This document shows positions 23,724 to 62,198 of a stretch of 64,000 bases of DNA, piece after piece. The stretch is taken from positions 21,587-85,586 of IMG/VR virus record IMGVR_UViG_3300032163_000007; one strand, written 5' to 3'. The notes below the pieces were generated by a model. The model saw only the letters and a program-made list of their open reading frames with translations, was not told where the DNA came from and ran no database searches. Position 1 is the stretch's first letter. Each line of letters starts with the position of its first letter. Origin of the DNA: a virus (lineage: Duplodnaviria > Heunggongvirae > Uroviricota > Caudoviricetes). A program made the position numbers and the translations under genes.

Positions 23724-23758
23724 AAGTTATATCTTGTTGTGTTTAGATCTTACTCTGC

Positions 23759-23771
23759 CTATAATTAAACT
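23759..23771 (+). promoter_or_regulatory. HEG-associated element CTATAATTAAACT abutting the ATG
   Basis: Shared TATAATTAA core. Confidence 0.45.
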
Positions 23772-24419
23772 ATGGAAAAGAAAAAAGAAGATCGATTTTG
23801 CAGCATATGTGGTAGACGCTTAGCTTGGAATCAAGTCAGCTGTTGCTCTAACACGTGTAGACTTGCACTCAAAGAGTCTAAGAAGACTATAAAGTTTTGC
23901 AAGCAGTGTGGAAAGCAGCTGGGACCTAAAGACTATCAGAAGCAGTTCTGTAATGGATCTTGTGCTGCTACGTACAATAACTTAGCAAAGGGTAGAGACA
24001 GAATGGTAGAGGCGGTATGTCCTATATGTGGTAAGAAGTTTACTACTCTACCACATAAGCGTAGAGTTAGTTGTAGCTCTGAGTGCGCCCTTGTGCTTAG
24101 GAGCCACAGAGTAGCGAGCCTTATAAAGAGTGGAGAGTTCACATACCAAGGAGGTGGTAGTGTCCCCCAAAGTGTTAGGCGATATATTATGCAGAAGTAT
24201 GGGAGTAAGTGTACTAAGTGCGGTTGGCATGAGGTCAATCCTAAAACAGGAAAGACACCGCTACATGTAGACCACATAGATGGTAACTCCCAGAATTATA
24301 AAGAGGAGAATCTAGATCTGCTATGCCCTAATTGCCACAGCCTGACCCCTACCTATGGTAGTCTTAATAAGGGTAACGGCAGGGATAGTATAAAGAAGCG
24401 GATTAAGGGTTTAGTATAG
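23772..24419 (+). CDS. HNH homing endonuclease with zinc-ribbon repeats
   Basis: Five CxxCG/CSxxC repeats; HNH core 'LHVDHIDGNSQNYKEENLDLLCPNCH'. Confidence 0.7.
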   Translation: MEKKKEDRFCSICGRRLAWNQVSCCSNTCRLALKESKKTIKFCKQCGKQLGPKDYQKQFCNGSCAATYNNLAKGRDRMVEAVCPICGKKFTTLPHKRRVSCSSECALVLRSHRVASLIKSGEFTYQGGGSVPQSVRRYIMQKYGSKCTKCGWHEVNPKTGKTPLHVDHIDGNSQNYKEENLDLLCPNCHSLTPTYGSLNKGNGRDSIKKRIKGLV

Positions 24420-24484
24420 CAGTAGTACGCCGATCTCCAAAATCGGAGGTAGGAGGGCAGCACTTCTAATCCTTGCCATATAAC

Positions 24485-24560
24485 GGGGCTGTAGCGCAAC
24501 TGGTAGCGCATTTGTCTTGCACACAAAAGGTCATCGGTTCGATCCCGATCAGCTCCACCA
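24485..24560 (+). tRNA. tRNA-Ala(TGC)
   Basis: D-arm GCGC-AACTGGTA-GCGC; anticodon arm TTTGT-CTTGCAC-ACAAA; T-arm ATCGG-TTCGATC-CCGAT; CCA encoded. Confidence 0.8.
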
Positions 24561-24563
24561 AGC

Positions 24564-24638
24564 GGTTTGTTGGTGTAATGGTTAGCACGGTTGATTGTCA
24601 ATCAACAAGCAGGAGTTCAATTCTCCTACTTACCGCCA
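24564..24638 (+). tRNA. tRNA-Asp(GTC), acceptor stem with two U-U mismatches
   Basis: D-arm GTGT-AATGGTTA-GCAC; anticodon arm GTTGA-TTGTCAA-TCAAC; T-arm AGGAG-TTCAATT-CTCCT; 3' end ...ACCGCCA. Confidence 0.6.
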
Positions 24639-24641
24639 TTT

Positions 24642-24716
24642 AGGATATTAGCTCAGCAGTAGAGCAATCGGCTGATAACCGATAGGTCCGTAGGGCAGCA
24701 CTACGATATCCTACCA
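24642..24716 (+). tRNA. tRNA-Ile(GAT) with atypical D-loop (no GG) and T-loop (GGCAGCA, no TTC)
   Basis: Perfect acceptor AGGATAT/ATATCCT + A + CCA; anticodon arm ATCGG-CTGATAA-CCGAT; T-stem CGTAG/CTACG. Confidence 0.55.
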
Positions 24717-24832
24717 TAAAGATTTGAGGGATAGAATGAGCCTGCGGTGGTTGAGACCCCACACTACGAAGAGGTAGTAAAAATAGCAGGCCCCCTTCAC
24801 TCCGCCCGGGTACGCGGTAAAACTGCCCATGA

Positions 24833-24905
24833 GGATCCTTAGCTCAGATGGTAGAGCGCCCTCCTTACAAGTGGGATGTCGTAGGTTCGAGTCCTACAGG
24901 ATCCA
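24833..24905 (+). tRNA. tRNA-Val(TAC)
   Basis: Perfect acceptor GGATCCT/AGGATCC; D-arm GCTC-AGATGGTA-GAGC; anticodon loop CTTACAA; T-arm GTAGG-TTCGAGT-CCTAC. Confidence 0.75.
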
Positions 24906-24908
24906 AAT

Positions 24909-24985
24909 GGGTAATTAGCTCAATGGATTAGAGCGCATGCCTACGAAGCATAAGGTTGAAGGTTCGAGTCCTTCATTGCCCTCCA
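24909..24985 (+). tRNA. tRNA-Arg(ACG)
   Basis: Acceptor GGGTAAT/ATTGCCC; anticodon loop CTACGAA; T-arm GAAGG-TTCGAGT-CCTTC; CCA encoded. Confidence 0.7.
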
Positions 24986-27569: not shown

Positions 27570-28658
27570 ATGTGGATGATGTACTTAATAGCTTTGATCC
27601 CGATAGTCGTAGGAATGTTCCTATGGGCATTTTCTAAGAGAATAACACTCACTGAGTACCTACTCTCTTGTTTAACAGGCATTGTTGTTACAGTACTAAT
27701 CACCCTCCTCATGGCACTCGGCATGACTGGGGACATCGAGACCTGGTCAGGCCTAGTTACCAAAGCCACACATATTCCTACCTGGGTTAACACCTATGAG
27801 CAGGCTCACTATGTCACAGTAGGTAAGACTACAACCGTATACTACACCACTGAGTACAACACTAACCCAGAGCACTGGGTTGCTGAGGCTACCCTTGGAA
27901 GTAGGGGCGCTGAAATTGGTATCAGTGAGGCCAGGTATAATGATATCTTAAAGAAGTTTGGCAGAGAAGTAGTAGTTAATGGGAGTAGGCCTAGTTATCA
28001 TTCTGGAGATAGGAATGACTACGTTGCTGTTAACGATAGCAAATACGTCTATCCAATCACACAGGAGTATAGTTTTACAAATAAGGTAAAGGCTTGTCCT
28101 AGTGTGTTTTCATACACGAAGGTATCTCCTGGAATTAAGGTGTTCGAATACCCCAAGAACGAGGACCTCTTTAAGTCAGATAGACTCATGGGAGAAGCCA
28201 AGAAAGACTTCAACATCTACGAGTTTGACAAGTTAAACACGGCAGTAGGTATGAAGATCTGGGCAAACATCATAATTGTAGGTTTTAAGGGGCAGGACTC
28301 TAAGATTGCCCAACTACAAGAGGCAAAGTGGGTCGGTGGAAAGAAGAATGACCTAGTCATTTGCTATTCCAAAGAACCCAAATGGGCTTATGTGTTTGGA
28401 TGGACTGAGAATGAACAGGTAAAGCGAAATCTCGAAGAGCTGTTTACTATCGGAACGATCAGTGGTAATATGTTACCTCAGATCCAAGAAGTAGTTATGA
28501 AGGATTATAAGATTAAAGACTGGTCTAAGTTTGATTACTTGACTGTAGAACCTCCGGGCTGGGCATTTGCTCTCTTGATCGCTTTGATGCTGCTAACGCA
28601 GTTTGGGTACTACTGGTGGGCATTTACGAATGGAGAAGATAAAGATGAAAGTATTTAA
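27570..28658 (+). CDS. membrane protein (DUF2207-like partner of LemA): N-terminal TMs, large central domain, C-terminal TM
   Basis: Hydrophobic N- and C-termini; adjacent to the LemA gene, as is often seen in bacteria. Confidence 0.4.
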   Translation: MWMMYLIALIPIVVGMFLWAFSKRITLTEYLLSCLTGIVVTVLITLLMALGMTGDIETWSGLVTKATHIPTWVNTYEQAHYVTVGKTTTVYYTTEYNTNPEHWVAEATLGSRGAEIGISEARYNDILKKFGREVVVNGSRPSYHSGDRNDYVAVNDSKYVYPITQEYSFTNKVKACPSVFSYTKVSPGIKVFEYPKNEDLFKSDRLMGEAKKDFNIYEFDKLNTAVGMKIWANIIIVGFKGQDSKIAQLQEAKWVGGKKNDLVICYSKEPKWAYVFGWTENEQVKRNLEELFTIGTISGNMLPQIQEVVMKDYKIKDWSKFDYLTVEPPGWAFALLIALMLLTQFGYYWWAFTNGEDKDESI

Positions 28659-29799
28659 GAAGGACAATTTAATAATCAAAAGCTGGTGTGAGAATCCCGA
28701 GCAAGGTGCGCTGGACCAAGCATTCAATACAGCATCGGCTCCCTATATATTTAGACAAGTATGCCTAATGCCCGATACCCATCAAGGTTATGGCGTTCCC
28801 ATTGGGGGCGTAGTTGCGACTAAAGGAGTTATTCTTCCTGAAGCCGTAGGAGTTGACATTGGATGTGGGATGATCGCCGTAGAAACGAGTATTGACGTAC
28901 CCAGTGTTGATCAAATTAAGGCTGTGATGGGAAAGATTCGTGCAGTTATTCCTGTTGGAATGAATCACAGAGCAGATAAGTGCCCCATCTCTGCCATGCC
29001 TAGCATAGGAGACATCATCAGCAATGGTATCGTGGAACGAGAGTTTGAGTCAGCTAGAAAGCAACTTGGAACTCTTGGAAGCGGAAACCACTTCTTAGAA
29101 CTACAAAAGGATGCTAAAGGCAAGCTTTGGGTCATGATCCACAGCGGAAGCAGAAACATTGGATACAAGGTTGCAGAGCACTACATCGATGAAGCCAAGC
29201 TTCTGAATAAAATGTGGTACACAAACACTCCTGAAGAGATTTGTATGCTACCCGCTGACTCAGAACTAGGAATAGCCTATGCTGCTGAAATGCAATACTG
29301 CGTTGACTTCGCTCTGGCGAATCGAAAGATGATGCTTGATGACGTTATGGCTATTATCAGCCACGATCTAGGAGCTAGCTTCAAAGAGCCTATAAACATA
29401 GCGCATAACTATGCAGCTATTGAGCACCACTACGGAGAGAACGTAATAGTTCATCGCAAGGGTGCTACTAGAGCTAGACTCGGTGAATTAGGAATTATTC
29501 CTGGGAGTCAAGGAACAAAGTCGTATATTGTTGAGGGTCTCGGCAATCCTGAGAGCTTTCAAAGCTGCAGTCATGGTGCTGGGCGTACAATGGGCCGTAA
29601 AGAGGCTACACGAGTTTTAGATCTAGTTGCTGAGATTAAGATACTGGATGACCAAGGAATTGTTCACGGTATTAGAACTGCCAAGGACCTTGAAGAGGCT
29701 ACAAGTGCCTACAAGGACATCGATATAGTCATGGAAGAACAAAAGGATCTTGTTAAGATTGTTACTGAGTTGCTCCCTGTAGCAGTAATAAAGGGGTAA
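28645..29799 (+). CDS. rtcB: RtcB RNA 3'-phosphate/5'-OH ligase
   Basis: RtcB motifs PDTHQGYGVPIGG, GCGM, GSGNHF, HSGSRN, NYAAIEHH, HRKGAT, IPGSQG, SHGAGR. Confidence 0.85.
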   Translation: MKVFKKDNLIIKSWCENPEQGALDQAFNTASAPYIFRQVCLMPDTHQGYGVPIGGVVATKGVILPEAVGVDIGCGMIAVETSIDVPSVDQIKAVMGKIRAVIPVGMNHRADKCPISAMPSIGDIISNGIVEREFESARKQLGTLGSGNHFLELQKDAKGKLWVMIHSGSRNIGYKVAEHYIDEAKLLNKMWYTNTPEEICMLPADSELGIAYAAEMQYCVDFALANRKMMLDDVMAIISHDLGASFKEPINIAHNYAAIEHHYGENVIVHRKGATRARLGELGIIPGSQGTKSYIVEGLGNPESFQSCSHGAGRTMGRKEATRVLDLVAEIKILDDQGIVHGIRTAKDLEEATSAYKDIDIVMEEQKDLVKIVTELLPVAVIKG

Positions 29800-34051: not shown

Positions 34052-34555
34052 ATGATCATAAGAAAAAGTTTTAAGTTAGAGATGGGTCATAGAGTAGTAG
34101 GTTCCTATACAACGGGATGCCAAAGCAATCACGGACATAGTGCCGTAGTGGAGCTGTTTTTAGAGGCTAAGACATTGGATCACACAGGAATGATTATTGA
34201 TTTTACTGAGGTTAAAGATCTTCTTGGAGACTTTTTCAACCAGTTCGATCACCGCACACTAGTATGGGACCAAGACGTTGAGTATTTGGAAGCTCTGGAG
34301 AAGCTAGGTTTTGCTCTCATGATAGTGCCTTATAACAGTACTGCAGAGAACATCAGTAAGCACATGTACCAGTTTGTTAGAGAAGCCCTTAAGAACCGCG
34401 TTAGAGTGGCAAGTGTGCGCTACCACGAAACTGTCACGGGTTATGCTGAATACTTTGTGGAAGACTACGACAGAGACGCCATGAACAACAACCTGTTTGA
34501 TCTCAGTCATGTGTTCTTGTCAGAAGCTACATGCATTAAGGAGTACCAACGATGA
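34052..34555 (+). CDS. queD: 6-carboxy-5,6,7,8-tetrahydropterin synthase QueD (PTPS family)
   Basis: 'EMGHRVVGSYTTGCQSNHGHS' (H..C..HGH zinc/catalytic motif); 'TGMIIDFTEVKDL'. Confidence 0.75.
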   Translation: MIIRKSFKLEMGHRVVGSYTTGCQSNHGHSAVVELFLEAKTLDHTGMIIDFTEVKDLLGDFFNQFDHRTLVWDQDVEYLEALEKLGFALMIVPYNSTAENISKHMYQFVREALKNRVRVASVRYHETVTGYAEYFVEDYDRDAMNNNLFDLSHVFLSEATCIKEYQR

Positions 34556-35220
34556 AAATAAATACAATATACCCAGCAATCGAAGGAGAGGGAGTCCGAG
34601 TAGGCACTCCTCAGCTATTCATCCGTACACAAGGATGTAGTATTGGATGTAAGAATTGTGACACTGTGGGATCTTGGAATCCTAACACAGGCACAGAAAT
34701 GTCAGTGAAAGAAATCTTTCAAAAGGTCATTGATAGTGGTCTTGACTCAATTAGCATCACCGGAGGCAACCCCCTAGAACAGGATCTCTACGACCTAGTG
34801 GGATTACTTCACCGAAGAAATTTTACAGTTAATATCGAGATCACTGGCCAAGACAATGACGAAGAGGTTCTTGACTTAGTAGACTTTATTAGTTGTGACA
34901 TCAAGACTCCGTCCACTGGGGTTACAGCTAATCTAGATATTATCGACGACATCTTAAAAAGCTATGGCCACTGCACACAGATCAAGTGCGTATGTGCTGA
35001 CCAAGCTGACTTAGACTTCATTATCGATTGTTACAACCGGTTCAAAGATAGACTTGATTACCATATGGTTATCACGCCTTGTTGGACAGAGCGCGCAAGT
35101 GCTGCTGATGTTGAGTTTATTGATCATATCATGAAAACTGTTATGGATAACAACTACCACATGCGAGTCATTGTACAACAGCATAAGCTACTCTTCGGAA
35201 GTAAACGCGGCGACGTATGA
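34552..35220 (+). CDS. queE: 7-carboxy-7-deazaguanine synthase QueE (radical SAM)
   Basis: 'LFIRTQGCSIGCKNCDT' matches the QueE CxxxCxxC-D motif; 'ITGGNPL'. Confidence 0.75.
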   Translation: MKINTIYPAIEGEGVRVGTPQLFIRTQGCSIGCKNCDTVGSWNPNTGTEMSVKEIFQKVIDSGLDSISITGGNPLEQDLYDLVGLLHRRNFTVNIEITGQDNDEEVLDLVDFISCDIKTPSTGVTANLDIIDDILKSYGHCTQIKCVCADQADLDFIIDCYNRFKDRLDYHMVITPCWTERASAADVEFIDHIMKTVMDNNYHMRVIVQQHKLLFGSKRGDV

Positions 35221-44311: not shown

Positions 44312-45100
44312 ATGGGTACAGATATTAAGGTAGGAATTGGTTCAGTAGTGGTGGGGTTGGTTGTAATCGTAGCGATTATGATGGCCTTCTCCTCAGTTAA
44401 GTTCGTCGGTATTGGTCAGCGCGGAGTTGTGTTTAATAAGTTCAGCGGTGAGATTAGTCGTACATTGGGTCAAGGTGTTAACTTCGTTAATCCTATTACT
44501 GACAAAGTGAAGAAGTATGATGTTAAGGTCACCAAAGAGACTTATGAAATGGAAGGTCTGAGTTCAGACAGTCAAACAATCAAAGCTAAGATCGTAGTCA
44601 ACTACAAACTTCGCAGTGAAAAATTGATCAGTATTTACCAGAACATCCAGGGTGATATCTCTGAGACGGTTCTTGCCAATGCGGTTATTGATACCACTAA
44701 AGCAGAGCTTGGTAAGTTTACCATCGATAACATTGCTAAGAACAGAGAGAGTCTCAAGCTAGCTGTTGAAGATGCCCTCAAAAAGCGCATGTTCTCACAG
44801 GGTATTGATATTCAGAACGTAAGTATCACTGATGTTAACTTCAGTGCGGAATTTGAAAAGTCCATCCAGGACAAAATGATTGCAGAGCAGCAAGCTCTTC
44901 AAGCTAAGAACAATAAGGAAAAGGTTCGTTATGAATCTGAGGCCAAAGCCATTGAAAACGAAAAGATGGCACAGAGTATCAGCCCAATGGTTCTTCAGCA
45001 ACGTCTGATCGAGAAATGGGATGGTCACCTACCAACAACTATGTCTGGTGGTGGAACAGGTGCAATGAGCTTCCTAATGAATTTAGGTACAGCGAAGTAA
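44312..45100 (+). CDS. SPFH/band-7 (prohibitin/HflC-like) membrane protein
   Basis: N-terminal TM; SPFH core and C-terminal coiled coil 'AEQQALQAKNNKEKV'. Confidence 0.65.
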   Translation: MGTDIKVGIGSVVVGLVVIVAIMMAFSSVKFVGIGQRGVVFNKFSGEISRTLGQGVNFVNPITDKVKKYDVKVTKETYEMEGLSSDSQTIKAKIVVNYKLRSEKLISIYQNIQGDISETVLANAVIDTTKAELGKFTIDNIAKNRESLKLAVEDALKKRMFSQGIDIQNVSITDVNFSAEFEKSIQDKMIAEQQALQAKNNKEKVRYESEAKAIENEKMAQSISPMVLQQRLIEKWDGHLPTTMSGGGTGAMSFLMNLGTAK

Positions 45101-45120
45101 GTTACAGTAGTTAAGGTGGT

Positions 45121-45150
45121 GGTGATTAGAAGCAGGGGCACAAGCCCCTG
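45121..45150 (+). terminator. rho-independent terminator
   Basis: AGCAGGGGC-acaa-GCCCCTGCT followed by ATGGTTTTC. Confidence 0.6.
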
Positions 45151-45715
45151 CTATGGTTTTCACCGCATCAGATAAAAATAATTGTCAGCGGTGTCGTGAG
45201 ACACCCACAGTGTAGAGCATACGGCTGTGACTAAATAGGGGTAATATACATCCCCAAATAAGAATGATTGCAGGCCTGAAATGTCAGGAGGATGGACTAG
45301 AATGCTGTTATGCTCCCCATCCATAAATGGAAGCAACCGTGCTGACAATTAGAATATAGACGTGGGTGGTTTGCAACCTAGAAGCAATCAAGGCATCGCC
45401 TCTTAACAATGCGTACCCGGCCGAGTGATATGGTCTAAAGTGGCTATAGGCCACAATGATGGTTAAAGCGTATCACCTCCTACCAGTCGGCAGACTGGGC
45501 CCACGCTATCCTCTAAGGAGTTTGTAAGTGTCAATAGGTCAATGGTTTGTAGTGCTAATAGTTATTGAAAGTATTCTGGGTGGATTGTGCTTCGGCCTGA
45601 TGGAAGGTGATATAATTAGGGCACTGTACTGGATCCTCATTGGTATACTTAACGCTCTAACACTCTATATGAAATGATAATTAGAATAGTATGTTAGAAG
45701 GTGGGTGATTGTAGC

Positions 45716-45844
45716 ATGAAGAAAGTAGCAAGTATCGTATTGGTTATGGCAGTAGTGGTAGTCCTCATAGGATGCGCCCCTAAGGCAGCAGTTAGCGCAG
45801 AAGCAGTAACAGCAAACGCGGTAGTAACAGTAGACGCAAAATAA
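45716..45844 (+). CDS. small lipoprotein (42 aa)
   Basis: RBS AAGGTGG; signal peptide with lipobox 'VLIGC'; not in the ORF track (<60 aa). Confidence 0.45.
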   Translation: MKKVASIVLVMAVVVVLIGCAPKAAVSAEAVTANAVVTVDAK

Positions 45845-45858
45845 AAACAATGGTTTTG

Positions 45859-45886
45859 AGGAACCCCTGCGGGGGTTCCATTTTTA
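45859..45886 (+). terminator. rho-independent terminator
   Basis: GGAACCCC-tgc-GGGGGTTCC followed by ATTTTT. Confidence 0.75.
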
Positions 45887-45887
45887 G

Positions 45888-45961
45888 GCCCGGTTAGCAT
45901 AGAGGTCATGCAGCGGATTTGTAATCCGCCTACGGGGGTTCAAATCCCTCACTGGGCTCCA
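45888..45961 (+). tRNA. tRNA-Thr(TGT)
   Basis: D-arm GCAT-AGAGGTC-ATGC; anticodon arm GCGGA-TTTGTAA-TCCGC; T-arm GGGGG-TTCAAAT-CCCTC; CCA encoded. Confidence 0.8.
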
Positions 45962-47389: not shown

Positions 47390-49018
47390 ATGAAATTCGA
47401 TGAAACCGTTTATTTACACGTAAGAAATAGCTTTGTCACTATAAAGTGCGAGTATATTACTGCGTTCCAAAAGCTCAAGAGAGAGCTATCCTTTCGTCCC
47501 ATGGGCTACAACTATAGTCCTAAGTTTAAGAGTGGCATGTGGGATGGATATATTCAGTTTGTTAGAGGTGACAAATTGATGACTGGGCTTCTACCTCTAA
47601 TCATAGAGGCATGCAAAGCCAATAAGTATCCATATAAAATCATTGATGAGCGCAAGGACCCCCTTAAAGAGCTTAATGAAATCAACCTCAGTAATGGCAT
47701 TACTCTCAGAGATGATCAGTATGAGGCCGTAGCTGAGGTAATTCATAACAAGAGGGGCATTGTGGCAGCTGCTACAAACGCAGGCAAAACATATATTGCT
47801 ACGGGCCTATATAAAGCTACAGGCCTAAAGACTCTATTCCTTACACATCGTGAAGAGCTCTTTACTCAGACCGAAGAAACCTTTGAAGGCATGCTTGGAG
47901 AAAAGATTGGTCACATCTGGGACAAGGACAACGACCACAACTTCAAGCTGACCATTGGAATGGTTCCCACAATAGCTAGGCGTCTTGAGAATCCCGAAGA
48001 AACTCTAAAGGGCCTGAAGAAGAGACTACTCGATCATAGTATAGAGTTACGTAAAGCCTGTGATGTGTTGAATAAGGTTGCAGGTCCTATTGGGATTAAG
48101 ACTTACACAGCTAAAGTAAAGAAGATTGAAAGCAATATGAAGAGAGTGCAAACTTCAGTTACTAACCTCACAAACAATATGGCCGCAGAGATCCAGAGAT
48201 GGAAAGATCTCAATAAGTACCTCTCTGAAGTAGAGATGGTTATAGTGGATGAAGCGCATCATAGTAGTGCTGAGACTTATGAGGATATTCTCTTAAAGTG
48301 CGACAGTGCATTCTACCGAGTGGGATTAACAGGTACTCCTGACTCCAAGGACAAGGTCAAAGATCTAAAGCTGAGAGGTTTGTTGGGGGAGGTCATATAT
48401 ACTATATCCAATCAGGAACTGATCGAGCTTGGAGTGAGCTCCACACCTACGATACACTTCCTTACTACACGTAAGCCTATTGTTGCTTCAGATTATCAGA
48501 GTGCCTATAAGTTAGGAATTATCAAGAACAGTGAGCGCAATGATCACATTGTTGAGGTATGTAAGAAGAAGCTAGCAGACAACAAGCCAGTCCTAATTCT
48601 AATCAACCATACAGACCATGGAGACCACCTGCACGAGTACCTCCTCAGGAGTGGATTCAAAGCCGACGATGTGGCGTTCATTCATGGTGGAAGCGTTGAC
48701 AGCCATAGAAAGGCAAAATTGACGGCTTTCAAGGAGGGTAAGGTGCCTATACTAATAGCATCTCTCATCTTACAGGAAGGAGTCAGCGTAAATAGCATAG
48801 GAGCGTTGATATTTGCCTTAGGTGGTAAGTCAAACGTACGAGTGTTACAGATTGCAGGTCGTGCTCTACGACTTAATAACTATGGCAATAAGGTGGAGAT
48901 CTACGACTTTTTAGACTATGGAGATCAATACCTGAAAGAGCATAGTAAGGAGAGGTATAGCACATATAAGAAAAGCTTCGGAGTAGAAGCTTTTGCAGAA
49001 GGGACACCAGAAGTATGA
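47390..49018 (+). CDS. SF2 DEAH-box helicase (UvsW-like)
   Basis: Motif I 'ATNAGKTYIA'; motif II 'VDEAHH'; motif III 'GLTGTP'; motif VI 'QIAGRALR'. Confidence 0.65.
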   Translation: MKFDETVYLHVRNSFVTIKCEYITAFQKLKRELSFRPMGYNYSPKFKSGMWDGYIQFVRGDKLMTGLLPLIIEACKANKYPYKIIDERKDPLKELNEINLSNGITLRDDQYEAVAEVIHNKRGIVAAATNAGKTYIATGLYKATGLKTLFLTHREELFTQTEETFEGMLGEKIGHIWDKDNDHNFKLTIGMVPTIARRLENPEETLKGLKKRLLDHSIELRKACDVLNKVAGPIGIKTYTAKVKKIESNMKRVQTSVTNLTNNMAAEIQRWKDLNKYLSEVEMVIVDEAHHSSAETYEDILLKCDSAFYRVGLTGTPDSKDKVKDLKLRGLLGEVIYTISNQELIELGVSSTPTIHFLTTRKPIVASDYQSAYKLGIIKNSERNDHIVEVCKKKLADNKPVLILINHTDHGDHLHEYLLRSGFKADDVAFIHGGSVDSHRKAKLTAFKEGKVPILIASLILQEGVSVNSIGALIFALGGKSNVRVLQIAGRALRLNNYGNKVEIYDFLDYGDQYLKEHSKERYSTYKKSFGVEAFAEGTPEV

Positions 49019-49977
49019 CTAAACTAGACGAAGTATACCAGAGACTAGCACTGCCGAAGGAATTATCCTTTGTCCGGGACAACCTACTGTACATGGTACT
49101 AGCAGGCAGCCATGCCTATGGTACCAATACTGCAGAGTCTGACGAAGACTTCAGAGGAGTTTGTATAGCGCCTCTGAGATACTATATGACCAACCAAGGT
49201 TTTGAGCAGCGTGAGGATAAGACCAACGACATCACTGTGTACAGTATTAACAAGTTTTTTCAGTTGGCTTCTGAAGTCAACCCGAATATCATTGAACTGC
49301 TTTTTATTGATCCCAAAGAGGCTGTTTATGTGCATCCTCTAATGGAGGAAATTCTCAAGAAGAAAGATATGTTTCTCAGCAGAAAGGCCGAGCACACCTT
49401 CTTAGGATATGCCTATGCACAGCTACAGCGTATTAGAACGCATAAGAAGTGGCTTGATAAGCCTCTGACGCAGCCAAAGCGTGAAGATTTCGGCTTGGAG
49501 CCAGTTCCACGTATAGCACATGAGAAGATCAAGGCGTTTTACACCCTTGGAGCTGACTGCTACAACATGGTAGGCAGTGACTTTGGTGACTATTTACGTA
49601 GGGAAGATGCATTCAACACGGCTCAAAGCTCATGGGATAAGTATAACGGCTGGCAAAAGAGCCGAAATCCTAAGAGATTCGAGTTAGAGAAGGCTTATTC
49701 CTACGATGTTAAGCATGGTATGCACCTTTGCCGTCTGCTATGTATGGCAGAAGAGATTGCTGTGGAGCGGACTATTAAAGTTAGACGTCCAGATGCAGAG
49801 TTCCTCTTAGATATTCGCAATGGCAAGTTCACGTATGAGGAAATCCTCCAATGGGCTGCTGATAAAGAGGCGAGAGTTAAAGCTGCGTTTGAGAGGAGCA
49901 GCCTCCCATGGGGTGTAAATCATGAGGCAATCAACTCCCTTTTAGAGAATACTCTAAGAAGTTTCTTTGGAATCTGA
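49015..49977 (+). CDS. nucleotidyltransferase-fold protein (Pol beta superfamily)
   Basis: 'LAGSHAYGTNTAESDEDFRGVCI' (GS...D.D signature). Confidence 0.5.
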   Translation: MTKLDEVYQRLALPKELSFVRDNLLYMVLAGSHAYGTNTAESDEDFRGVCIAPLRYYMTNQGFEQREDKTNDITVYSINKFFQLASEVNPNIIELLFIDPKEAVYVHPLMEEILKKKDMFLSRKAEHTFLGYAYAQLQRIRTHKKWLDKPLTQPKREDFGLEPVPRIAHEKIKAFYTLGADCYNMVGSDFGDYLRREDAFNTAQSSWDKYNGWQKSRNPKRFELEKAYSYDVKHGMHLCRLLCMAEEIAVERTIKVRRPDAEFLLDIRNGKFTYEEILQWAADKEARVKAAFERSSLPWGVNHEAINSLLENTLRSFFGI

Positions 49978-52268: not shown

Positions 52269-53723
52269 ATGAAATACAATTTATACCCACAGCATCAGCA
52301 CGATTTTTTAGCCAGACTAGATACTAGCGTAAAAGCTAGAGGTGGTAACCTATTCTTTGTTGGTGGTTGTGTTCGAGATGCCCTTCGTGGTAATTCAAAT
52401 CCCAGCGATACTGATATTCTGGTAGTTCGAATCACTGATGAGCAGTTTAGAGAGGCTCTAGAAGAGTTTAAGAATACTCCATCATTTTCAACCATTACCT
52501 ACGACTTTGTAGGTAAGAGCTTCGGCGTGTACAAAGTTAGTGTGACTTCAAAAGTTGAGGGAGATTACTTCATCGGTAATGGTGTCAGTAGTGTTATTGA
52601 CTTTGCATTCCCCCGTAAAGAGGTAAGTACTGGTGACGGCCACAGAGACTTTGAGAATGAGTTTGATCCATTTATGCCCATCGAAGAAGACCTAGCACGT
52701 AGAGATTTTACTATGAACGCCATTGCTATCAGCTTTGATGGTAAGACCATCGTTGACCCCTTCAAAGGAAGAACTGACATTAACAAAGGCATACTACGAA
52801 GCATTGGCACTAATTCTATCAGTGAGGACTACTTGAGAGCGCTTCGAGGTGTTCAGTTCGTAGCTAGGTTTAACCTCTATATCAATGCTGATACTCTGAA
52901 GCAGATTCAAGACAATGTGTACCTAATTGATACTATTTCTGAGGATCGTATCCGCCAGGAACTGGCGAAGCTGCTTAAGGCTCCATTTGTTCATAGAGGG
53001 TTTGAACTCCTCAAGAATACTGGGTTGTTACAAGCCATTTGTGAGCCTCTATACAATTGCAACGCAAACAACAACTACAACTGGTTGCATCACAAGTACA
53101 ATACATACTGCCATACCATTCAAGCCATTGACAATTTGTCAAGAACCTGTGATCCTGTGGTAGCAGTTGCAGCAATGCTCCATGACATTGGAAAGCCTCT
53201 AACTGAGAGCGTAGATGAGTATGGAATCTATCACAACTACCGCCACGAAGAGGCTAGTGTAAAACTGGCCAAGGTTTGGCTGGAAAGCTACCACTACAGT
53301 AATGACGACACCGAACAGATCTTATGGCTGATTGCCAATCATATGGGACAACCTCATAGAGAGGCTAGTCCAGGACGACGCAAGCAGATCAAGAAGCTGC
53401 TGAGATCAGCTAAAGATAAGTCATGGGTAATCAACCTATTCCTACTAAAACAAGCAGACTCAAACGCCAGCCTGGACTTTGTTCATACCAATGAGGTCAT
53501 GGACTGGATCTCTACGATGACTGATATCATTGAGCAGCAAGAGGCATTCTCACTTAAAGACCTACAGGTGCATGGCTTTGATATGCTGGAACTTGGGCTT
53601 AAGGGACCAGCTATTGGTCACATGCTTAACAAGCTACTCACTGACGTAATTGAGGGAGACATTGTCAACGAAAGAGATGCTCTACTGGACTACGTGAAAG
53701 TTACCCAACTGGTTGTAGTATGA
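52269..53723 (+). CDS. cca: CCA-adding tRNA nucleotidyltransferase with C-terminal HD domain
   Basis: Head motif 'FVGGCVRDALRG...DTDILV'; 'RRDFTMNA'; HD motif 'AAMLHDIGKP'. Confidence 0.75.
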   Translation: MKYNLYPQHQHDFLARLDTSVKARGGNLFFVGGCVRDALRGNSNPSDTDILVVRITDEQFREALEEFKNTPSFSTITYDFVGKSFGVYKVSVTSKVEGDYFIGNGVSSVIDFAFPRKEVSTGDGHRDFENEFDPFMPIEEDLARRDFTMNAIAISFDGKTIVDPFKGRTDINKGILRSIGTNSISEDYLRALRGVQFVARFNLYINADTLKQIQDNVYLIDTISEDRIRQELAKLLKAPFVHRGFELLKNTGLLQAICEPLYNCNANNNYNWLHHKYNTYCHTIQAIDNLSRTCDPVVAVAAMLHDIGKPLTESVDEYGIYHNYRHEEASVKLAKVWLESYHYSNDDTEQILWLIANHMGQPHREASPGRRKQIKKLLRSAKDKSWVINLFLLKQADSNASLDFVHTNEVMDWISTMTDIIEQQEAFSLKDLQVHGFDMLELGLKGPAIGHMLNKLLTDVIEGDIVNERDALLDYVKVTQLVVV

Positions 53724-56430: not shown

Positions 56431-56679
56431 ATGAAGGTTATTGAACAAAGTGTAGAGATTATTGACTTGGGTGGAACACCCCTGGAAATTTACAAGAAGC
56501 TTGAGAACATCGGCAGGGTTTGCTATAAGTCAGAAGATAAAATCACAGATGAGACCCATGACAAGTTTCTCAGGGATGTCATAAGAAGAGGTCACGAGTC
56601 TGTACTTGAGCACCACAACATCACGTTGAGGTTTATCACGGACCGTGGTGTAACCCATGAAATTGTCATGCCCGCTTAA
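56431..56679 (+). pseudogene. thyX: thyX (FAD-dependent thymidylate synthase), N-terminal part; the gene is split by a frameshift
   Basis: 'RVCYKS...HESVLEHHNITLRFITDRGVTHEIV' matches the ThyX N-terminal half; stops 4 codons later. Confidence 0.6.
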
Positions 56680-57076
56680 CTTTGCCAGCTACTCGCAAGA
56701 AAGTACACGCTATGTGAACTATAATAAGGTTGGTATGGAAGTGATCCTTCCAGTTGAGTTTGCGAACACTATCACTGATGTGAATAGAAGTACGCAGTAT
56801 TGGCAGTGGCAAGAGGCTATGAAACGAGCCGAGGACCATTACAACAATATGATCAAAAATGGTGCTGTGCCACAGCTTGCCAGATCAGTTCTACCAAACA
56901 GTTTGAAAACGGAGTTAGTGATGACAGCGAACATCAGAGAATGGCGACACTTTCTCAAGTTGCGTACAGCTATGGCAGCGCATCCACAGCTAAGGAGCCT
57001 AGCTACAACTCTACAAACTATGCTTGCTACCGAACTCCCTATTTTCTTTGAGGTCACCCCTAAGTTGGATCAGTAG
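56657..57076 (+). pseudogene. thyX: thyX C-terminal part in the +1 frame; the RHR part of the ThyX motif is replaced
   Basis: 'ASYSQESTRYVNY' is the ThyX S..S.RY motif, but the positions that should be RHR read CPL/PLN. Confidence 0.6.
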
Positions 57077-57085
57077 CAAGAATGA

Positions 57086-57099
57086 GTAATAATTAAGAT
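57086..57099 (+). promoter_or_regulatory. HEG-associated element GTAATAATTAAGAT abutting the ATG
   Basis: Shared AATTAAGAT core. Confidence 0.45.
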
Positions 57100-58155
57100 A
57101 TGAAAAAGAGCATGGGATACACAGAAGACACAAAGATCCTTACAGAGGATGGTTGGAGGTGGGTTAAAGATCTGGAGAGTGGGTGCATGGTCCACACCCT
57201 CGACTATCAGGGGCAACTATGTGTAACTCCGGTTCAAAAAGTTATATGTGAGGAATACTCTGGAGAAGTTCTCCATTTGAAGTCTTCAAAGATAGACCTG
57301 GATATAGGGGCCCTCCAACCTCTCTTTGTGAGAACAGAGAATAAAAGTCCTTTACATGTGCCCGCTCAGGATGTAACTCATAAGCATATTTTTCTAAAGG
57401 GAGCTCAAATCCCTGAAATTATGGCTGAGCAGATTGTTGGGTTGCCGTCAGTGGTTGATGGCGGGTTCCTAAAAAGAGTTGTTGCAGAGAGATATCTAGA
57501 TACGAACCAGTTTCTACTTTTCTTAGGACTTTGGGTAACGGATGGGTCTATCCGATTAACCGGTAGAGCTGGAAATCAGGTTAGAATATCCCAAGTTAAA
57601 CCTTCCGTCAGAGCTGTGATAGATAAACTTCTAGCTGCCTTAGACTTTAAGTACTCTTATAGTTGCAAAAGCTACTACATGTACTCTAAACAACTTTTCT
57701 GCTTCCTTCGGGAGCAGTTCATAAAAAATAACGACCCTAAAAAAGGATATTACGTTAGTATCCCTTTATGGATAAAAAAGATGCACGCGTTACACTTAGA
57801 GCATTTAGTAAAGGGGTTAATGCTTGGAGATGGAAGATTAGAGCCTAACTGCGAGTACAGTGGGTACCTTACAACAGCTTCGGAGGCTCTAGCTGAAGAT
57901 TTCGCAGAGATAGCCTTAAAGATGGGAAGATGCGCAACAATCCGGAAGAAGGGAGTGGGTATGGTTCATAGTAAGCAGAAAGTTCCCTACTACTTTGTGT
58001 CTCTTCTTAAACCTATTACACACTACGCAAGGACTACGCAAGTCTTAAGCAAATTTTATAGTGGTCCTCTATACAGTATATTTCTAGATGGCCAGAAACC
58101 TGTATATATAATGCAAAAAGGTAAAACTTTATGGGGAGGTACAAATGGCGAATGA
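57100..58155 (+). CDS. free-standing LAGLIDADG homing endonuclease with an intein-like (Hint) N-terminal segment
   Basis: 'LFLGLWVTDGS' and 'LVKGLMLGDGRL' LAGLIDADG motifs; N-terminal 'DTKILTEDGWRWVKDL' resembles intein block A; no C-terminal HN splice junction. Confidence 0.6.
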   Translation: MKKSMGYTEDTKILTEDGWRWVKDLESGCMVHTLDYQGQLCVTPVQKVICEEYSGEVLHLKSSKIDLDIGALQPLFVRTENKSPLHVPAQDVTHKHIFLKGAQIPEIMAEQIVGLPSVVDGGFLKRVVAERYLDTNQFLLFLGLWVTDGSIRLTGRAGNQVRISQVKPSVRAVIDKLLAALDFKYSYSCKSYYMYSKQLFCFLREQFIKNNDPKKGYYVSIPLWIKKMHALHLEHLVKGLMLGDGRLEPNCEYSGYLTTASEALAEDFAEIALKMGRCATIRKKGVGMVHSKQKVPYYFVSLLKPITHYARTTQVLSKFYSGPLYSIFLDGQKPVYIMQKGKTLWGGTNGE

Positions 58156-59233: not shown

Positions 59234-59533
59234 ATGAGTTATATGAGTTTATTTTGTGGTGAGTGCGGACAGCCGTGCGGTATTGAGGTCGTTGACCTAG
59301 GTATTGGAGTCTATGATTGTGGAGGTCATTCTGAAGTTGATTCCAGACCCTGCTGCGTCAGTGATTGCTGTGAGGCAGATATCTACGCAGAGCAATGCGA
59401 AACCTGTGAAGGAGCCTGCGTAGTACTTGATCCTGATACTGGCCATATGGTTAAGTGTGATGACTGTAATGGTACAGGTCTCACGGGCCTCATGGATGAA
59501 GACGAATTAGAAGATATAGCAAGAGGAGATTAA
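59234..59533 (+). CDS. Cys-rich protein (DnaJ-type zinc-finger-like CxxCxGxG repeats)
   Basis: 'CGECGQPCG', 'CETCEGAC', 'CDDCNGTG'. Confidence 0.4.
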   Translation: MSYMSLFCGECGQPCGIEVVDLGIGVYDCGGHSEVDSRPCCVSDCCEADIYAEQCETCEGACVVLDPDTGHMVKCDDCNGTGLTGLMDEDELEDIARGD

Positions 59534-59535: not shown

Positions 59536-60432
59536 TTGATTAAATGCTTTTACCATAGTAGCGACTTAGACGGCAAGTGCAGTGCAGCGATAGTTAGACT
59601 CAAGTATCCCGATTGTGAATTGTTTCCCATCGACTACAACGATCCTTTCCCCTGGGAAGATATAACAGCTACTGACACAATAGTCATGGTTGACTTTAGT
59701 TTAGCCGCTTCAGACATGAAGTACTTGGCCGAGAAGTGTAAATTGGTTTGGATCGACCACCACGCAACGGCTCTTGACGCCGCTAAGGTGATTGGCTTTG
59801 AGCCAGAAGGTTTGCGCAAAGTAGGAGATGCCGCTTGTGAGCTGGTTTGGGACTACTATTTTGACAGTCACTATCACCCCACCGCAGTTATATTCTTGGG
59901 CAGATATGATGTCTGGGATCACAGCAATGCAGACGTGGTACCATTTCAAATGGGTGCACGTATGTATGCTCTCGAACCTGATGACTCGATGTGGAAGGTT
60001 CTTCTTGTGCCTCCATCGATGAACCCCAAAGAAACCCAGGACTTAGTCTTGAAGATCCTCGGTGAGGGTAAGATTATCCTCGAGTATGAGAAGCAACAGA
60101 ACGCAGATCTGTGTAGAAAGCATGCCTTTGAGGTTGATTGGGGTGGTCTGAAAATGATCGCTGTTAACTCCGCAAAGGGCAGTGCTGTACTTGATAGTGT
60201 TGTAAAGCCAGAGCATGATCTCACTTGTACGTTCTCCACGAATAGTGTGGTATGGTGGGTTAGCCTATATAGTGGCAAGCCTGATGTACACTGTGGTGAA
60301 ATCGCCAAGATGTTTGGTGGTGGAGGACACAAGGGTGCAGCTGGGTTCACTTGCAATGAATTGCCTTGGCTCAAAGCCAATCCTAAAAGAGATACATTGT
60401 CAGAGATCAATGAGCTTCTGGGCATCCTATGA
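59536..60432 (+). CDS. DHH-family phosphoesterase (NrnA-like nanoRNase/pAp phosphatase)
   Basis: DHH motifs 'YHSSDLDG', 'MVDFS', 'WIDHHAT' and 'MFGGGGHKGAAGF' (DHHA1 GGGH). Confidence 0.7.
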   Translation: MIKCFYHSSDLDGKCSAAIVRLKYPDCELFPIDYNDPFPWEDITATDTIVMVDFSLAASDMKYLAEKCKLVWIDHHATALDAAKVIGFEPEGLRKVGDAACELVWDYYFDSHYHPTAVIFLGRYDVWDHSNADVVPFQMGARMYALEPDDSMWKVLLVPPSMNPKETQDLVLKILGEGKIILEYEKQQNADLCRKHAFEVDWGGLKMIAVNSAKGSAVLDSVVKPEHDLTCTFSTNSVVWWVSLYSGKPDVHCGEIAKMFGGGGHKGAAGFTCNELPWLKANPKRDTLSEINELLGIL

Positions 60433-60902
60433 AAAACCAGAAAGAGGTAATGGAGTTAGCTGCAGAGCTTCACAAAGGCCAGACTCGTGAAGATGGCATC
60501 GAGCCTTATGTGAACCATCCTCTCAGAGTATCCACACTATACCAGGAATACACTTGGTCTAGTAACCAAATCATGATTGCGCTCCTGCATGATACGATTG
60601 AGGACTGTGGCGTGACGGAGGATGACCTTGTAATGAAGCATGGAGTTCCTCCTGCTGTAGCTATGGGAGTTGCAATGCTTTCTAGAGTGAAAGATGAGTC
60701 TTATGTGGACTTTATCCACCGCATTGGTAAGAGCTTCAAGTCTATGAGGGATATCAAAATCGCTGATATAAAGGATAATCTTAGGAACCATAAGAAGAGT
60801 AGTAGAAGAGATAAGTATGAGCTTGCTCTAGCTCTGCTGCAGTCTTATGGGGACCTCGAAGAAAAAACAACCGTAATTCTTAATGTATTAAAGCAAAAAT
60901 AA
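60429..60902 (+). CDS. HD-domain hydrolase of the RelA/SpoT (p)ppGpp-hydrolase type (small alarmone hydrolase-like)
   Basis: 'HPLRVSTLY...IMIALLHDTIEDCG' matches the SpoT/Mesh1 HD signature. Confidence 0.6.
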   Translation: MKNQKEVMELAAELHKGQTREDGIEPYVNHPLRVSTLYQEYTWSSNQIMIALLHDTIEDCGVTEDDLVMKHGVPPAVAMGVAMLSRVKDESYVDFIHRIGKSFKSMRDIKIADIKDNLRNHKKSSRRDKYELALALLQSYGDLEEKTTVILNVLKQK

Positions 60903-60929
60903 ATAGTAATATACATCTAAAAGAAAGAG
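60900..60929 (+). promoter_or_regulatory. promoter-like motif AATAGTAATATACATCTAAAAGAAAGAGG
   Basis: Member of the GTAATATACATC family. Confidence 0.45.
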
Positions 60930-61199
60930 GTGCTTATTATGCAAGCAACACAAATTAAAGAACTAGTTAAGTCAACAAAAGGTAAGGTATTTGGTATACA
61001 GTTTGTTAAGCGTACCACTGGTGAGTTGAGAAAAATGACTTGCCGTACTGGAGCCAGAGTTGGTGTAACGGGTGAAGGTCGTAAGTATGACCTCGATGAG
61101 AAGAATCTTCTAAGTGTCTACGATATGAAGAAAGGCTTCAGAACTATACCGATCGAAGGTGTAGTATCATTTACGTTTAAGGGTGTGAAGTATGAGTAA
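60930..61199 (+). CDS. hypothetical protein
   Basis: Listed ORF; RBS AGAGG. Confidence 0.4.
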   Translation: MLIMQATQIKELVKSTKGKVFGIQFVKRTTGELRKMTCRTGARVGVTGEGRKYDLDEKNLLSVYDMKKGFRTIPIEGVVSFTFKGVKYE

Positions 61200-61368
61200 G
61201 AAAAAAGTAAACGAAGCTATCGTTGAGATCGAAAAGGCTCAAGATGTACTAGGTGAGCTTAAGAAGCATATAGTCTTGGAGATATCTAAGGCAAAGGCAT
61301 CTAGCTTAGGGGTTCAGCTTGAAAAGGCCTTGGATCTGCTTGAGGAGGCAAAGCATGACGGAGAGTAA
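61192..61368 (+). CDS. small coiled-coil ORF (58 aa)
   Basis: Found by eye; overlaps the upstream stop. Confidence 0.25.
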   Translation: MSKKKVNEAIVEIEKAQDVLGELKKHIVLEISKAKASSLGVQLEKALDLLEEAKHDGE

Positions 61369-61427
61369 AGCGATACTAGCCTCCGTAAAGCGTGCCATGT
61401 CTGATGTGTAGGGTGGCTTTAGCAGAA

Positions 61428-62198
61428 ATGTTAAAAGCATATCACAAAGACCGTCAGAATCCTCCTAAACAAGGGAATAGGCATACAATGCGCACCTTTG
61501 CTCTAGGAGACGTACACGGCAACTATAAGGCACTGATGCAAGTGCTGGAGCGAGCCAACTTCAACTATGAAGAGGACACGCTCATTGGTTTAGGGGACTA
61601 CTGCGACGGGTATCCTCAGACCAAAGAGGTCATTGATGAGCTGCTGAAGATCAAAAATCTGATACCTATTATGGGTAATCATGACGAATGGCTAAGAGAA
61701 TACTTCCGCAAGGGAGCTATGCCTCATATATGGGTGTCTCAGGGCGGTCAGGCCACATTAGAGAGCTATGATTTTACTTTCAATGAAGCTCATCTCAACT
61801 TCCTTGACCACTGCAGATACTCATATACTGATGAAAAGAACAGGATTTTCTGTCACGGCGGCTTCCCCAAAGACACCACAGACATCCTTGATGTGGATCG
61901 CCACATCATAACTTGGGACAGAAGCCTAGTCAAAAATGCTATAACTAAAAAGCAATACTCGACTGACAAGACCCGTACCAAGTACGTGGAAGCATTTGAA
62001 GAGGTTTGGGTGGGTCACACGACTACCCAAGGTTGGAAGACATTCCAGCCTATCATAGCATTCAATATCTATTTGCTCGATACTGGCGCAGGCTGGGACG
62101 GCAAGCTAACTCTGATGGATGTAGACTCCAAGGAAGTCTTTCAGAGTGATTTTGGATGGGAATTGTATGGAGAAAATCAGGGAAGAGGTACTTACTAG
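61428..62198 (+). CDS. PPP-family Ser/Thr phosphatase or ApaH-like diadenosine tetraphosphatase
   Basis: 'LGDVHGNY', 'GDYCDGYPQ' and 'GNHDEW' metallophosphatase motifs; start uncertain (61428 or 61498). Confidence 0.6.
   Translation: MLKAYHKDRQNPPKQGNRHTMRTFALGDVHGNYKALMQVLERANFNYEEDTLIGLGDYCDGYPQTKEVIDELLKIKNLIPIMGNHDEWLREYFRKGAMPHIWVSQGGQATLESYDFTFNEAHLNFLDHCRYSYTDEKNRIFCHGGFPKDTTDILDVDRHIITWDRSLVKNAITKKQYSTDKTRTKYVEAFEEVWVGHTTTQGWKTFQPIIAFNIYLLDTGAGWDGKLTLMDVDSKEVFQSDFGWELYGENQGRGTY

Follow-up and report, generated by a model that had tools for sequence, protein, structure and literature searches.

The stretch of phage DNA analysed here, hereafter referred to as the window, comprises 64,000 nucleotides (positions 21,587 to 85,586) of the IMG/VR virus record IMGVR_UViG_3300032163_000007, assigned to the Caudoviricetes. 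Three genes encoding predicted phosphohydrolases lie within 2.7 kb on its plus strand, between positions 59536 and 62198: a DHH/DHHA1 phosphoesterase (the DHH protein), a RelA/SpoT-type HD hydrolase (the HD protein) and a lambda-phosphatase/ApaH-like metallophosphatase of the PPP family (the PPP protein) (Table 1). The original prediction, made from the letters of the DNA, held that these enzymes could together neutralise host alarmone or cyclic-nucleotide immune signalling. The three open reading frames (ORFs) are indeed intact, and the assignment of their products to the DHH, HD and PPP classes was right, being borne out by Pfam and PHROG matches, motifs, and PDB and fold matches; each belongs, as a divergent member, to an enzyme class already known. 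We conclude that their juxtaposition is particular to this genome, that it does not constitute a conserved module, and that it is not evidence of joint function.

Table 1. Coordinates of the three hydrolase genes, the ORFs between them and other genes of the window to which the text refers.
Feature	Position	Strand	Remarks
DHH/DHHA1 two-domain phosphoesterase, NrnA-like, 298 aa	59536..60432	+	TTG start; assigned from PHROG match, motifs and fold
Single-domain RelA/SpoT-type HD hydrolase (small alarmone hydrolase, SAH), 157 aa	60429..60902	+	Pfam HD_4; 7SMG match
Small ORF, 86-89 aa	60930..61199	+	PHROG 2267 (function not assigned)
Small ORF, 58 aa, predicted helical	61192..61368	+	no family match; also called in ENA and Logan assemblies
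Lambda-phosphatase/ApaH-like binuclear metallophosphatase (PPP), 236 aa	61488..62198	+	subfamily motif GDxxDG[WYF]
RtcB RNA ligase	28630..29799	+	Pfam RtcB 4.7e-107
TROVE (Ro60-like) protein	41298..42755	+	context gene
RlaP, RNA-repair Pol-beta nucleotidyltransferase	49015..49977	+	Pfam RlaP 2.7e-22
CCA-adding tRNA nucleotidyltransferase with HD domain	52269..53723	+	context gene
Portal gene	17972-19678		40 kb from the HD gene

The evidence against a module comes mainly from the neighbourhoods of relatives. Family hidden Markov models were built from alignments, and 80 IMG/VR viral loci per family, taken from at least 412, 557 and 158 IMG/VR matches for the three families, were scanned up to 10 kb on each side of the anchoring gene; 80 further metagenome loci anchored on HD_4, scanned over the same distance, brought the total to 320 (individual loci are denoted below by L numbers). 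In the DHH-anchored loci, no HD_4 gene (0/80) and no PPP gene (0/80) was found. The PPP-anchored loci contained no DHH gene (0/80) and a single HD_4 gene, 6 kb away (1/80), and neither a DHH nor a PPP gene was present in any of the 80 viral or 80 metagenome loci anchored on HD_4. Thus, any two of the families occurred together in one of 240 viral loci and in none of the 80 metagenome loci; with one co-occurrence in 320 loci, the three families do not behave as a module. The only record of the annotated collection with relatives of two of the genes, LR756500, carries DHH and PPP homologues that are more than 220 kb apart.

The local arrangement of the genes points in the same direction. The HD and PPP genes are not contiguous, being separated by the two small ORFs of Table 1 and a gap of 120 nt; the first of these ORFs had no Pfam, NCBIfam or PADLOC match. 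The stop codon of the DHH gene and the start codon of the HD gene overlap by 4 nt (ATGA). We considered this overlap as a sign of coupling and rejected it, because overlaps are the norm in the window, where 37 of the 83 pairs of neighbouring genes share sequence, 23 pairs doing so by 1 or 4 nt. Furthermore, in simulations with 5-8 phosphoesterases per ~100 genes, a run of five successive genes contained three of them by chance in 3-16% of cases, so that the clustering is in itself weak evidence. A scan of the 58-63 kb region for consensus promoters and terminators returned fewer sites than shuffled sequence, none of them informative, and PADLOC matched none of ten local proteins, including all three hydrolases, to a defence model.

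Of the three enzymes, the HD protein allows the most specific interpretation. It scores 37.3 bits against Pfam HD_4 (cut-off 27.2) and matches the N-terminal hydrolase part of TIGR00691 (spoT_relA) at 3.7e-16. It is a lone hydrolase domain, with no synthetase or regulatory domain, and the flanking ORFs are unrelated to it. The PDB entry most similar to it in sequence is 7SMG (2e-14), which is Aph1, a hydrolase of (p)ppApp; the hydrolase domains of Rel/SpoT and then MESH1 come next. An alignment with the full sequence of Aph1, obtained from locus L241, reveals the complete catalytic set of RSH hydrolases (H15, H30, H54-D55, E58-D59, D113 and N117), with the motifs HxGQxR, PYxxHP, HDxxED, KxxD and DN; Q18, R20, Y27 and K110 also align with catalytic positions of Aph1 and Rel. 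On the basis of its sequence, which establishes the enzyme class, the HD protein is therefore a credible phage small alarmone hydrolase (SAH).

The residues that bear on its specificity are mixed. It has been reported that six residues, D24, R96, D116, R119, K133 and Y134 of Aph1, mark (p)ppApp-specific enzymes, and that a D24R/R119A variant of Aph1 gains the ability to hydrolyze ppGpp (PMC10083569). The HD protein has R20-R98-R119-K122-K129-Y130 at these positions, against D-R-D-R-K-Y in Aph1, and thus lacks the full signature. Both base-facing acidic positions of Aph1 (D24 and D116) are Arg in the HD protein, as in Escherichia coli SpoT and SeRel; the D24R and D116R substitutions in Aph1 were made precisely to copy those enzymes (PMC10083569). 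What the HD protein has in common with Aph1, which is encoded by a Bacteroides caccae prophage, is the short length (157 aa versus 143 aa, the two aligning end to end at the sequence level, as expected of the short scaffold, which is without two helices of the (p)ppGpp hydrolases), a DESYxDFIxR segment containing R96, and the C-terminal K133-Y134 pair. It differs from Aph1 in having Arg for D24 and D116 and Lys for R119, and in the loop from N114 to Y134, which is 7 residues shorter. With this mixture, the sequence is compatible with a preference for either (p)ppApp or (p)ppGpp.

Within its family the HD protein groups with a minority set, which we refer to as R-type (L089, L175, L177 and L179-L181). 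A homologue of the 86-89 aa ORF that follows the HD gene lies 4 kb upstream of the R-type SAH in L177. The full Aph1 signature is present in 54 HD proteins from viral and related loci, and in 47 of the 80 viral HD loci the HD gene has a neighbour, within the head module, that encodes a MuF-type protein. Arg at both D24 and D116 equivalents is common in the metagenome loci (56 of 80 SAH-like proteins); among the matches listed in the metagenome scan for closer R-type relatives, none exceeded 39% identity. A tblastn search with the HD protein returned 'metal-dependent phosphohydrolases' of Seunavirus (PVP-SE1-like) and rV5-like phages at ~31-36% identity.

The functional precedent for such proteins is strong: stand-alone SAHs of the phages PVP-SE1 and SSU5 neutralise every toxSAS toxin assayed (PMC7229694), and the SSU5 enzyme is in routine use to detoxify CapRel. 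In addition, SAH enzymes reverse the pyrophosphorylation of tRNA-CCA ends, MESH1 and ATfaRel restoring aminoacylation (10.1101/2021.04.30.441581). The Salmonella phage PVP-SE1 and SSU5 enzymes described by Jimmy et al. 2020, PbcSpo and PaSpo, are, like the HD protein, single-domain proteins of lytic or large phages that lack a partner synthetase and have identical catalytic motifs. The HD protein differs from them in its low identity to both, its shorter length and a scaffold apparently nearer to that of Aph1, and whereas PbcSpo and PaSpo are known to neutralise toxSAS toxins, the HD protein is known from sequence. The alarmone/toxSAS part of the original prediction is well founded, given the full catalytic set and the precedents with the phage SAHs and tRNA-CCA. 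We infer that the HD protein acts on (p)ppGpp, (p)ppApp or both by cleaving off their 3'-pyrophosphate, and that it possibly does the same to pyrophosphorylated CCA ends of tRNA. Such hydrolysis would blunt the host stringent response or abortive infection by systems of the toxSAS/CapRel type.

For the DHH protein, family membership rests on fold and motifs, since the Pfam scores fall slightly below the gathering cut-offs (DHH, 26.9 bits with a cut-off of 28.1; DHHA1, 21.8 bits with a cut-off of 25.9) and NCBIfam gave no match; PHROG 4771 ('DHH phosphoesterase') matches at 1.2e-39. Thirty homologues all share the residues H7/D10/D12, D53, D74-H75-H76, D125 and G262-G263-G264-H265. The AlphaFold2 model (predicted local distance difference test, pLDDT, 92.8) consists of two domains joined by a linker helix of residues 164-196, and its best PDB matches in Foldseek are NrnA, Rv2837c, DhhP, TM1595, GdpP and PggH (E 1e-12 to 1e-9), each of them, like the RecJ-like proteins that were also matched, with a probability of 1.0. 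The DHH protein thus shares the DHH + DHHA1 fold, the metal-binding motifs and GGGH with NrnA, Rv2837c (CnpB), TM1595, DhhP and the catalytic domain of GdpP, and differs from them in that it is just 13-17% identical and shorter (about 280-298 aa versus 310-340 aa). Its clade is large (3,751 matches at E<=1e-3, mostly 274-305 aa), comes chiefly from contigs of phages and metagenomes, and has invariants of its own (W72, W105, Y124-D125-x-W127 and F137-Q138). Several of its members bear the JGI label NrnB/COG2404. A search of IMG/VR with the single sequence returned no loci, and it was the alignment-based search that yielded them. Directly upstream of the DHH gene lies a Cys-rich ORF of 99 aa (59234-59533) with DnaJ-like CxxCxGxG zinc-finger repeats, the sole family match of which is a weak one to GRXCR1/2_C.

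The matches to the DHH fold span enzymes for nanoRNA, pAp, cyclic dinucleotides such as c-di-AMP, and cyclic oligoadenylates, between which sequence alone cannot discriminate. The neighbours of the family are heterogeneous and belong mostly to replication and nucleotide metabolism: ThyX is nearby in 9 of the 80 viral loci and DNA ligase in 7 of 80, ribonucleotide reductase and dUTPase also occur, and in L335 DNA polymerase A lies directly upstream. Based on these contexts, and on the presence of NrdD, PurA and ThyX genes in the window, the most economical reading of fold, motifs and family context is that the DHH protein is a nanoRNase/pAp-type enzyme of nucleic-acid turnover. As such, it would be an Mn2+ phosphodiesterase of the NrnA kind, with short molecules as its substrates (for example nanoRNA or nanoDNA, pAp, linear dinucleotides), most likely finishing the breakdown of host nucleic acids to mononucleotides for phage synthesis. 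A role in RNA repair or against cyclic nucleotides is possible.

The ORF of the PPP gene opens with a GTG codon at 61392. All of the 26 aligned homologues start at MRTF, which corresponds to the ATG codon at 61488, and a ribosome-binding site (AAGGGA) is located 12 nt upstream of this codon; on these two grounds ATG 61488 is probably the true start, the upstream GTG and ATG codons being unused. The protein matches Pfam Metallophos (1.6e-15) and PHROG 246, 'NinI-like phosphatase' (3e-53). Its AlphaFold2 model (pLDDT 95) was matched by Foldseek most closely to lambda phosphatase (1G5B; template modelling (TM) score 0.70-0.75), and next to ApaH (TM 0.61-0.64) and the phosphatase domain of Clostridium thermocellum Pnkp (4J6O; TM 0.70). 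Invariant residues are D8/H10, D37, D40-G41, N64-H65-D66, H123, H177, D198, Q85-G86-G87 and W143/R145, and the metal-ligand motifs GDxHG, GDxxD, GNH[DE], H and GH are all kept. Thus, the PPP protein has the binuclear metallophosphatase fold and metal ligands in common with the lambda Ser/Thr phosphatase (NinI), and departs from it in several respects. The phosphate-binding Arg of the GDxxDRG motif is absent, the sequence being GDYCDGY in the PPP protein and GDxxDG[WYF] in its family, while the second Arg (R145 of WDR) is kept; the QGG, WDR and C-terminal QSD...LYP...GR motifs are family-specific. None of the NCBIfam cut-offs is reached (ApaH, 59 of 176 bits; PrpA/PrpB, 57.9 of 326; PrpE, 16.4 of 340). 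Two other phage proteins came up in this connection: the 'phage phosphatase' of the RES/NARP1 paper, which proved irrelevant to the PPP protein as it concerns Macro-domain enzymes, and the mycobacteriophage gp48 metallophosphoesterase, which is DNA-damaging.

The neighbours of the PPP family include RNA ligase, RtcB and Ro genes. The PPP gene adjoins, within 150 nt, an Rnl-type RNA ligase gene in L111, L131 and L164, RtcB in L102 and L137, and TROVE/Ro in L107, that is, in 6 of 80 loci compared with 1 of 80 ThyX-anchored control loci (p=0.12); the PPP proteins of these six loci are just 38-60% identical to each other. When any RNA-repair gene in the flanks is counted, the numbers are 12 of 80 and 3 of 80, respectively (Fisher p=0.027). 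ThyX also recurs near members of the family. In L111 and L131, a second metallophosphoesterase gene and a P-loop kinase-like ORF are located just downstream of the ligase gene. Since 2',3'-cyclic phosphodiesterase activity is documented for lambda phosphatase and for the phosphatase domain of Pnkp (PMC2190708), and given the adjacency to RNA ligase, RtcB and Ro genes, RNA-end healing by the PPP family is a reasonable hypothesis that draws on fold and family neighbours. The PPP protein would then be a lambda-phosphatase-like phosphomono- or diesterase, its most plausible job being the healing of 2',3'-cyclic or 3'-phosphate RNA ends; hydrolysis of Ap4A or protein phosphates may be an alternative activity.

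RNA-repair genes are also found near some relatives of the other two genes. In L001, the order is RNA ligase, DHH, CCA-adding enzyme, Zn-ribbon protein and RlaP, and in L007 RlaP lies 0.8 kb upstream and the CCA-adding enzyme 1.6 kb downstream of the DHH gene. An Rnl gene is present within 1 kb of the DHH gene in L061 and L075, and in phage csAssE-Sib (OR575929, L339:4136-5930) a polynucleotide kinase (PNK)/3'-phosphatase gene overlaps the start of the DHH gene, annotated 'NrnA'; four tRNA genes lie ~3 kb upstream of this pair. RNA-repair genes were counted near the DHH gene in 9 of 80 loci versus 3 of 80 ThyX-anchored control loci. After removal of near-duplicates, this became ~5 of 75 versus 3 of 80 (p=0.48), which is not significant. 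For the SAHs, the clearest example is L175 (L175:2131-4822; IMGVR_UViG_3300014204_000217), in which RlaP, 29% identical to that of the window, is followed by a short R-type SAH and then by ten tRNA genes, the array beginning 7 nt past the stop codon of the SAH gene; L175 and L180 are the only R-type SAH loci with RlaP within 10 kb. These positions beside RlaP, the CCA-adding enzyme and tRNA arrays hint at a connection of some DHH and HD relatives with RNA repair. In the loci with the closest DHH and HD homologues (L001:2396-9100 and L089:2959-8384), genes for NAPRTase, NAD synthase and isochorismatase stand beside those for RNA ligase, CCA-adding enzyme and RlaP, and this combination of NAD+ salvage and repair genes suggests that counter-defence and repair share an accessory region.

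Taking these results together, we favour the view that the three genes are independently acquired accessory phosphohydrolase genes, catalytically intact and not part of a dedicated module, with the roles proposed above for each enzyme, a reading to which we assign a probability of roughly 0.55. The trio would lie in an early/middle region devoted to nucleic-acid metabolism of a phage with a 172-kb contig and an SPO1-like terminase. Several observations weigh against parts of this reading. The closest solved relative of the HD protein is (p)ppApp-specific, so that activity on (p)ppGpp is not assured; the fold matches of the DHH protein include the cyclic-dinucleotide phosphodiesterases GdpP, DhhP and Rv2837c; the PPP adjacency counts are small (6 versus 1, p=0.12), and in the window the PPP gene lies 20-30 kb from RtcB and Ro and is neither fused nor adjacent to a polynucleotide kinase or RNA ligase gene. 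Finally, co-expression could still be the reason why the three genes lie close together in this one genome.

It might be argued instead that the three enzymes form a coordinated battery against host signals, the HD protein acting on alarmones and tRNA pyrophosphates, the DHH protein on cyclic di- and oligonucleotides (those of CBASS, type III CRISPR or c-di-AMP signalling) and the PPP protein on Ap4A-like or other nucleotide signals. There is experimental precedent for the HD part, and the DHH/DHHA1 class includes c-di-AMP phosphodiesterases and a nuclease that degrades cyclic oligoadenylates, in line with what has been predicted for jumbo phages (PMC7824862) and with the presence of GdpP, DhhP and Rv2837c among the Foldseek matches; likewise, the PPP protein resembles ApaH, and the three genes lie on one strand within 2.7 kb. 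However, a battery is difficult to reconcile with the one co-occurrence in 320 loci and with the lack of a conserved defence-related partner. Moreover, PADLOC gave no match, no known anti-CBASS, anti-Pycsar or anti-CRISPR fold was found among the three proteins, and the family contexts are replication and nucleotide metabolism for DHH, and RNA ligases and ThyX for PPP. We therefore regard this alternative as improbable. Two parts of the original prediction are likewise unsupported, namely that the enzymes act together, which the model-based scans and the unremarkable ATGA overlap speak against, and that the DHH and PPP proteins are directed at immune signals, for which we found nothing specific to cyclic oligonucleotides or c-di-AMP, the contexts being nucleotide metabolism and RNA-end repair, respectively. 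The alarmone hydrolase is the part of the anti-signalling interpretation that stands. The HD protein could in principle also protect the phage from a (p)ppApp-synthetase toxin of its own, as Aph1 does in the Aph1-Apk2 MuF module. Aph1 is its closest solved relative, and many viral HD genes are of that kind, as the 54 proteins with the full signature and the 47 loci with a MuF-type neighbour indicate (PMC10083569). Yet the HD protein lacks the signature residues D24 and D116, and its gene, unlike Aph1-type loci, does not adjoin a MuF toxin gene, lying outside the head module and far from the portal gene. Neither an RSH synthetase nor a MuF protein was matched among ~50 window proteins scanned with Pfam and PHROGs (covering 64 of 172 kb, with many small ORFs outside the scan), which makes such self-immunity unlikely; taken together, we consider it very improbable indeed.

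A further explanation is that all three enzymes are end-processing accessories of tRNA repair by the phage: the SAH would free CCA ends of their 3'-pyrophosphate, the conversion of 2',3'-cyclic or 3'-phosphate ends would fall to the PPP protein, and the DHH protein would trim or clear short fragments, 3' or 5', and thereby enable RlaP or the CCA-adding enzyme, together with the ligases, to restore the tRNAs. The tRNA-protection theme noted for this genome is real, as RtcB, Ro/TROVE, RlaP, a CCA-adding enzyme and 19 tRNA genes are all present in the window. Consistent with this explanation, SAHs can act on tRNA 3' ends, the closest DHH homologues lie amid RNA ligase, CCA-adding enzyme and RlaP genes (L001, L007), the DHH gene of csAssE-Sib overlaps a PNK/3'-phosphatase gene, the R-type SAH gene of L175 sits between RlaP and ten tRNA genes, and six divergent phages have a PPP gene next to one for Rnl, RtcB or TROVE. 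On the other hand, the DHH enrichment vanishes on dereplication (5/75 versus 3/80, p=0.48), in most DHH loci (L003, L335-L337 and over 70 from IMG/VR) the surroundings lack RNA-repair genes, just two R-type SAH loci (L175, L180) have RlaP within 10 kb, the three genes are 6-30 kb away from the repair genes of the window, and RtcB requires no 3'-end healing. We consider this explanation doubtful for the trio as a whole. In a broader form, it would hold that phage tRNA repair has end-processing parts not recognised as such before, namely the short R-type SAHs, the GDxxDG[WYF] phosphatases and the DHH clade of phages, with SAHs stripping the 3'-pyrophosphate left on CCA ends by toxSAS, PPP enzymes healing cyclic or 3'-phosphate ends for Rnl-type ligases, and DHH enzymes trimming damaged termini before RlaP or the CCA-adding enzyme acts; the toolkit would be a dispersed, mix-and-match one, with the juxtaposed trio as a single example of it. 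So wide a generalisation seems unlikely to us.

Regarding the phage itself, the ORFs of the window are nearly all on the plus strand and the GC content is 41-45%. An ENA contig of 171,862 bp (ERZ27247924 k141_804020) carries the same genes. The large terminase shares just ~35% identity with its counterparts in SPO1-like Bacillus phages, and a megablast search with the 4.5-kb region against 50,697 phage records gave no match, which indicates that there is no close annotated relative. The window encodes replication and repair proteins (gp32-like, RecA-like, FEN, SbcCD-like, RuvC, UvsW-like and DNA ligase), enzymes of nucleotide metabolism (NrdD, PurA and ThyX), a sigma factor, the portal protein, FolE2 and a QueE-like protein.

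A number of other features were observed in passing. In the region 56431-58155, ThyX is split into two overlapping frames, 56431-56679, which terminates '...THEIVMPA*' at the expected RHR motif, and 56657-57076, which resumes '...SQESTRY'; a LAGLIDADG endonuclease ORF (57100-58155) follows, and the split is also present in the ENA assembly. The tRNA arrays (21433-24985 and 43175-45961) are interrupted by HNH endonuclease ORFs (21572-22150, 23772-24419 and 43303-43971), and the second array also contains an SPFH/Band-7 gene (44312-45100). The QueE-like radical-SAM gene and the FolE2 GTP cyclohydrolase gene (34552-35220 and 36834-37625) point to a 7-deazaguanine pathway that would serve to modify DNA or tRNA. 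NrdD (13193-16261; 1,022 aa) matches Pfam NRDD in two separate stretches, suggesting an insertion, possibly an intein. Just past the 3' end of the window (L093:13306-15487), an ArdC-N + MPTase-PolyVal protein and a PIF1-type helicase are encoded after the region.

The general idea that phage HD and DHH enzymes counter nucleotide signals has already been published: in jumbo phages, nucleotide-based immunity was predicted to be countered by HD-alarmone hydrolases and DHH phosphodiesterases, whereas RNA repair was assigned to calcineurin-like phosphatases, RlaP and CCA-adding enzymes (PMC7824862). The gene sets described there (Iyer, Anantharaman, Krishnan, Burroughs and Aravind 2021) hold the same inventory, including RNA ligases. 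That study makes its predictions family by family, and a unit formed by the trio is neither proposed there nor supported by the linkage tests presented here.

As a cluster, the three genes thus have no special meaning, and by present evidence the DHH and PPP proteins are generic. The substrate range of the HD protein and its role during infection are inferred; if it does neutralise defences of the toxSAS/CapRel type, it adds a divergent and compact lineage of SAHs to the counter-defence repertoire of phages. The R-type SAHs, which combine an apparently Aph1-like scaffold with Rel-like base-contacting residues, could in addition help define what determines specificity for (p)ppApp, (p)ppGpp or tRNA. 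Finally, the PPP enzymes encoded beside RNA ligases, and some of the DHH enzymes and SAHs encoded beside RlaP, CCA-adding enzymes or tRNA arrays, are candidates for the missing end-healing steps of phage RNA repair.

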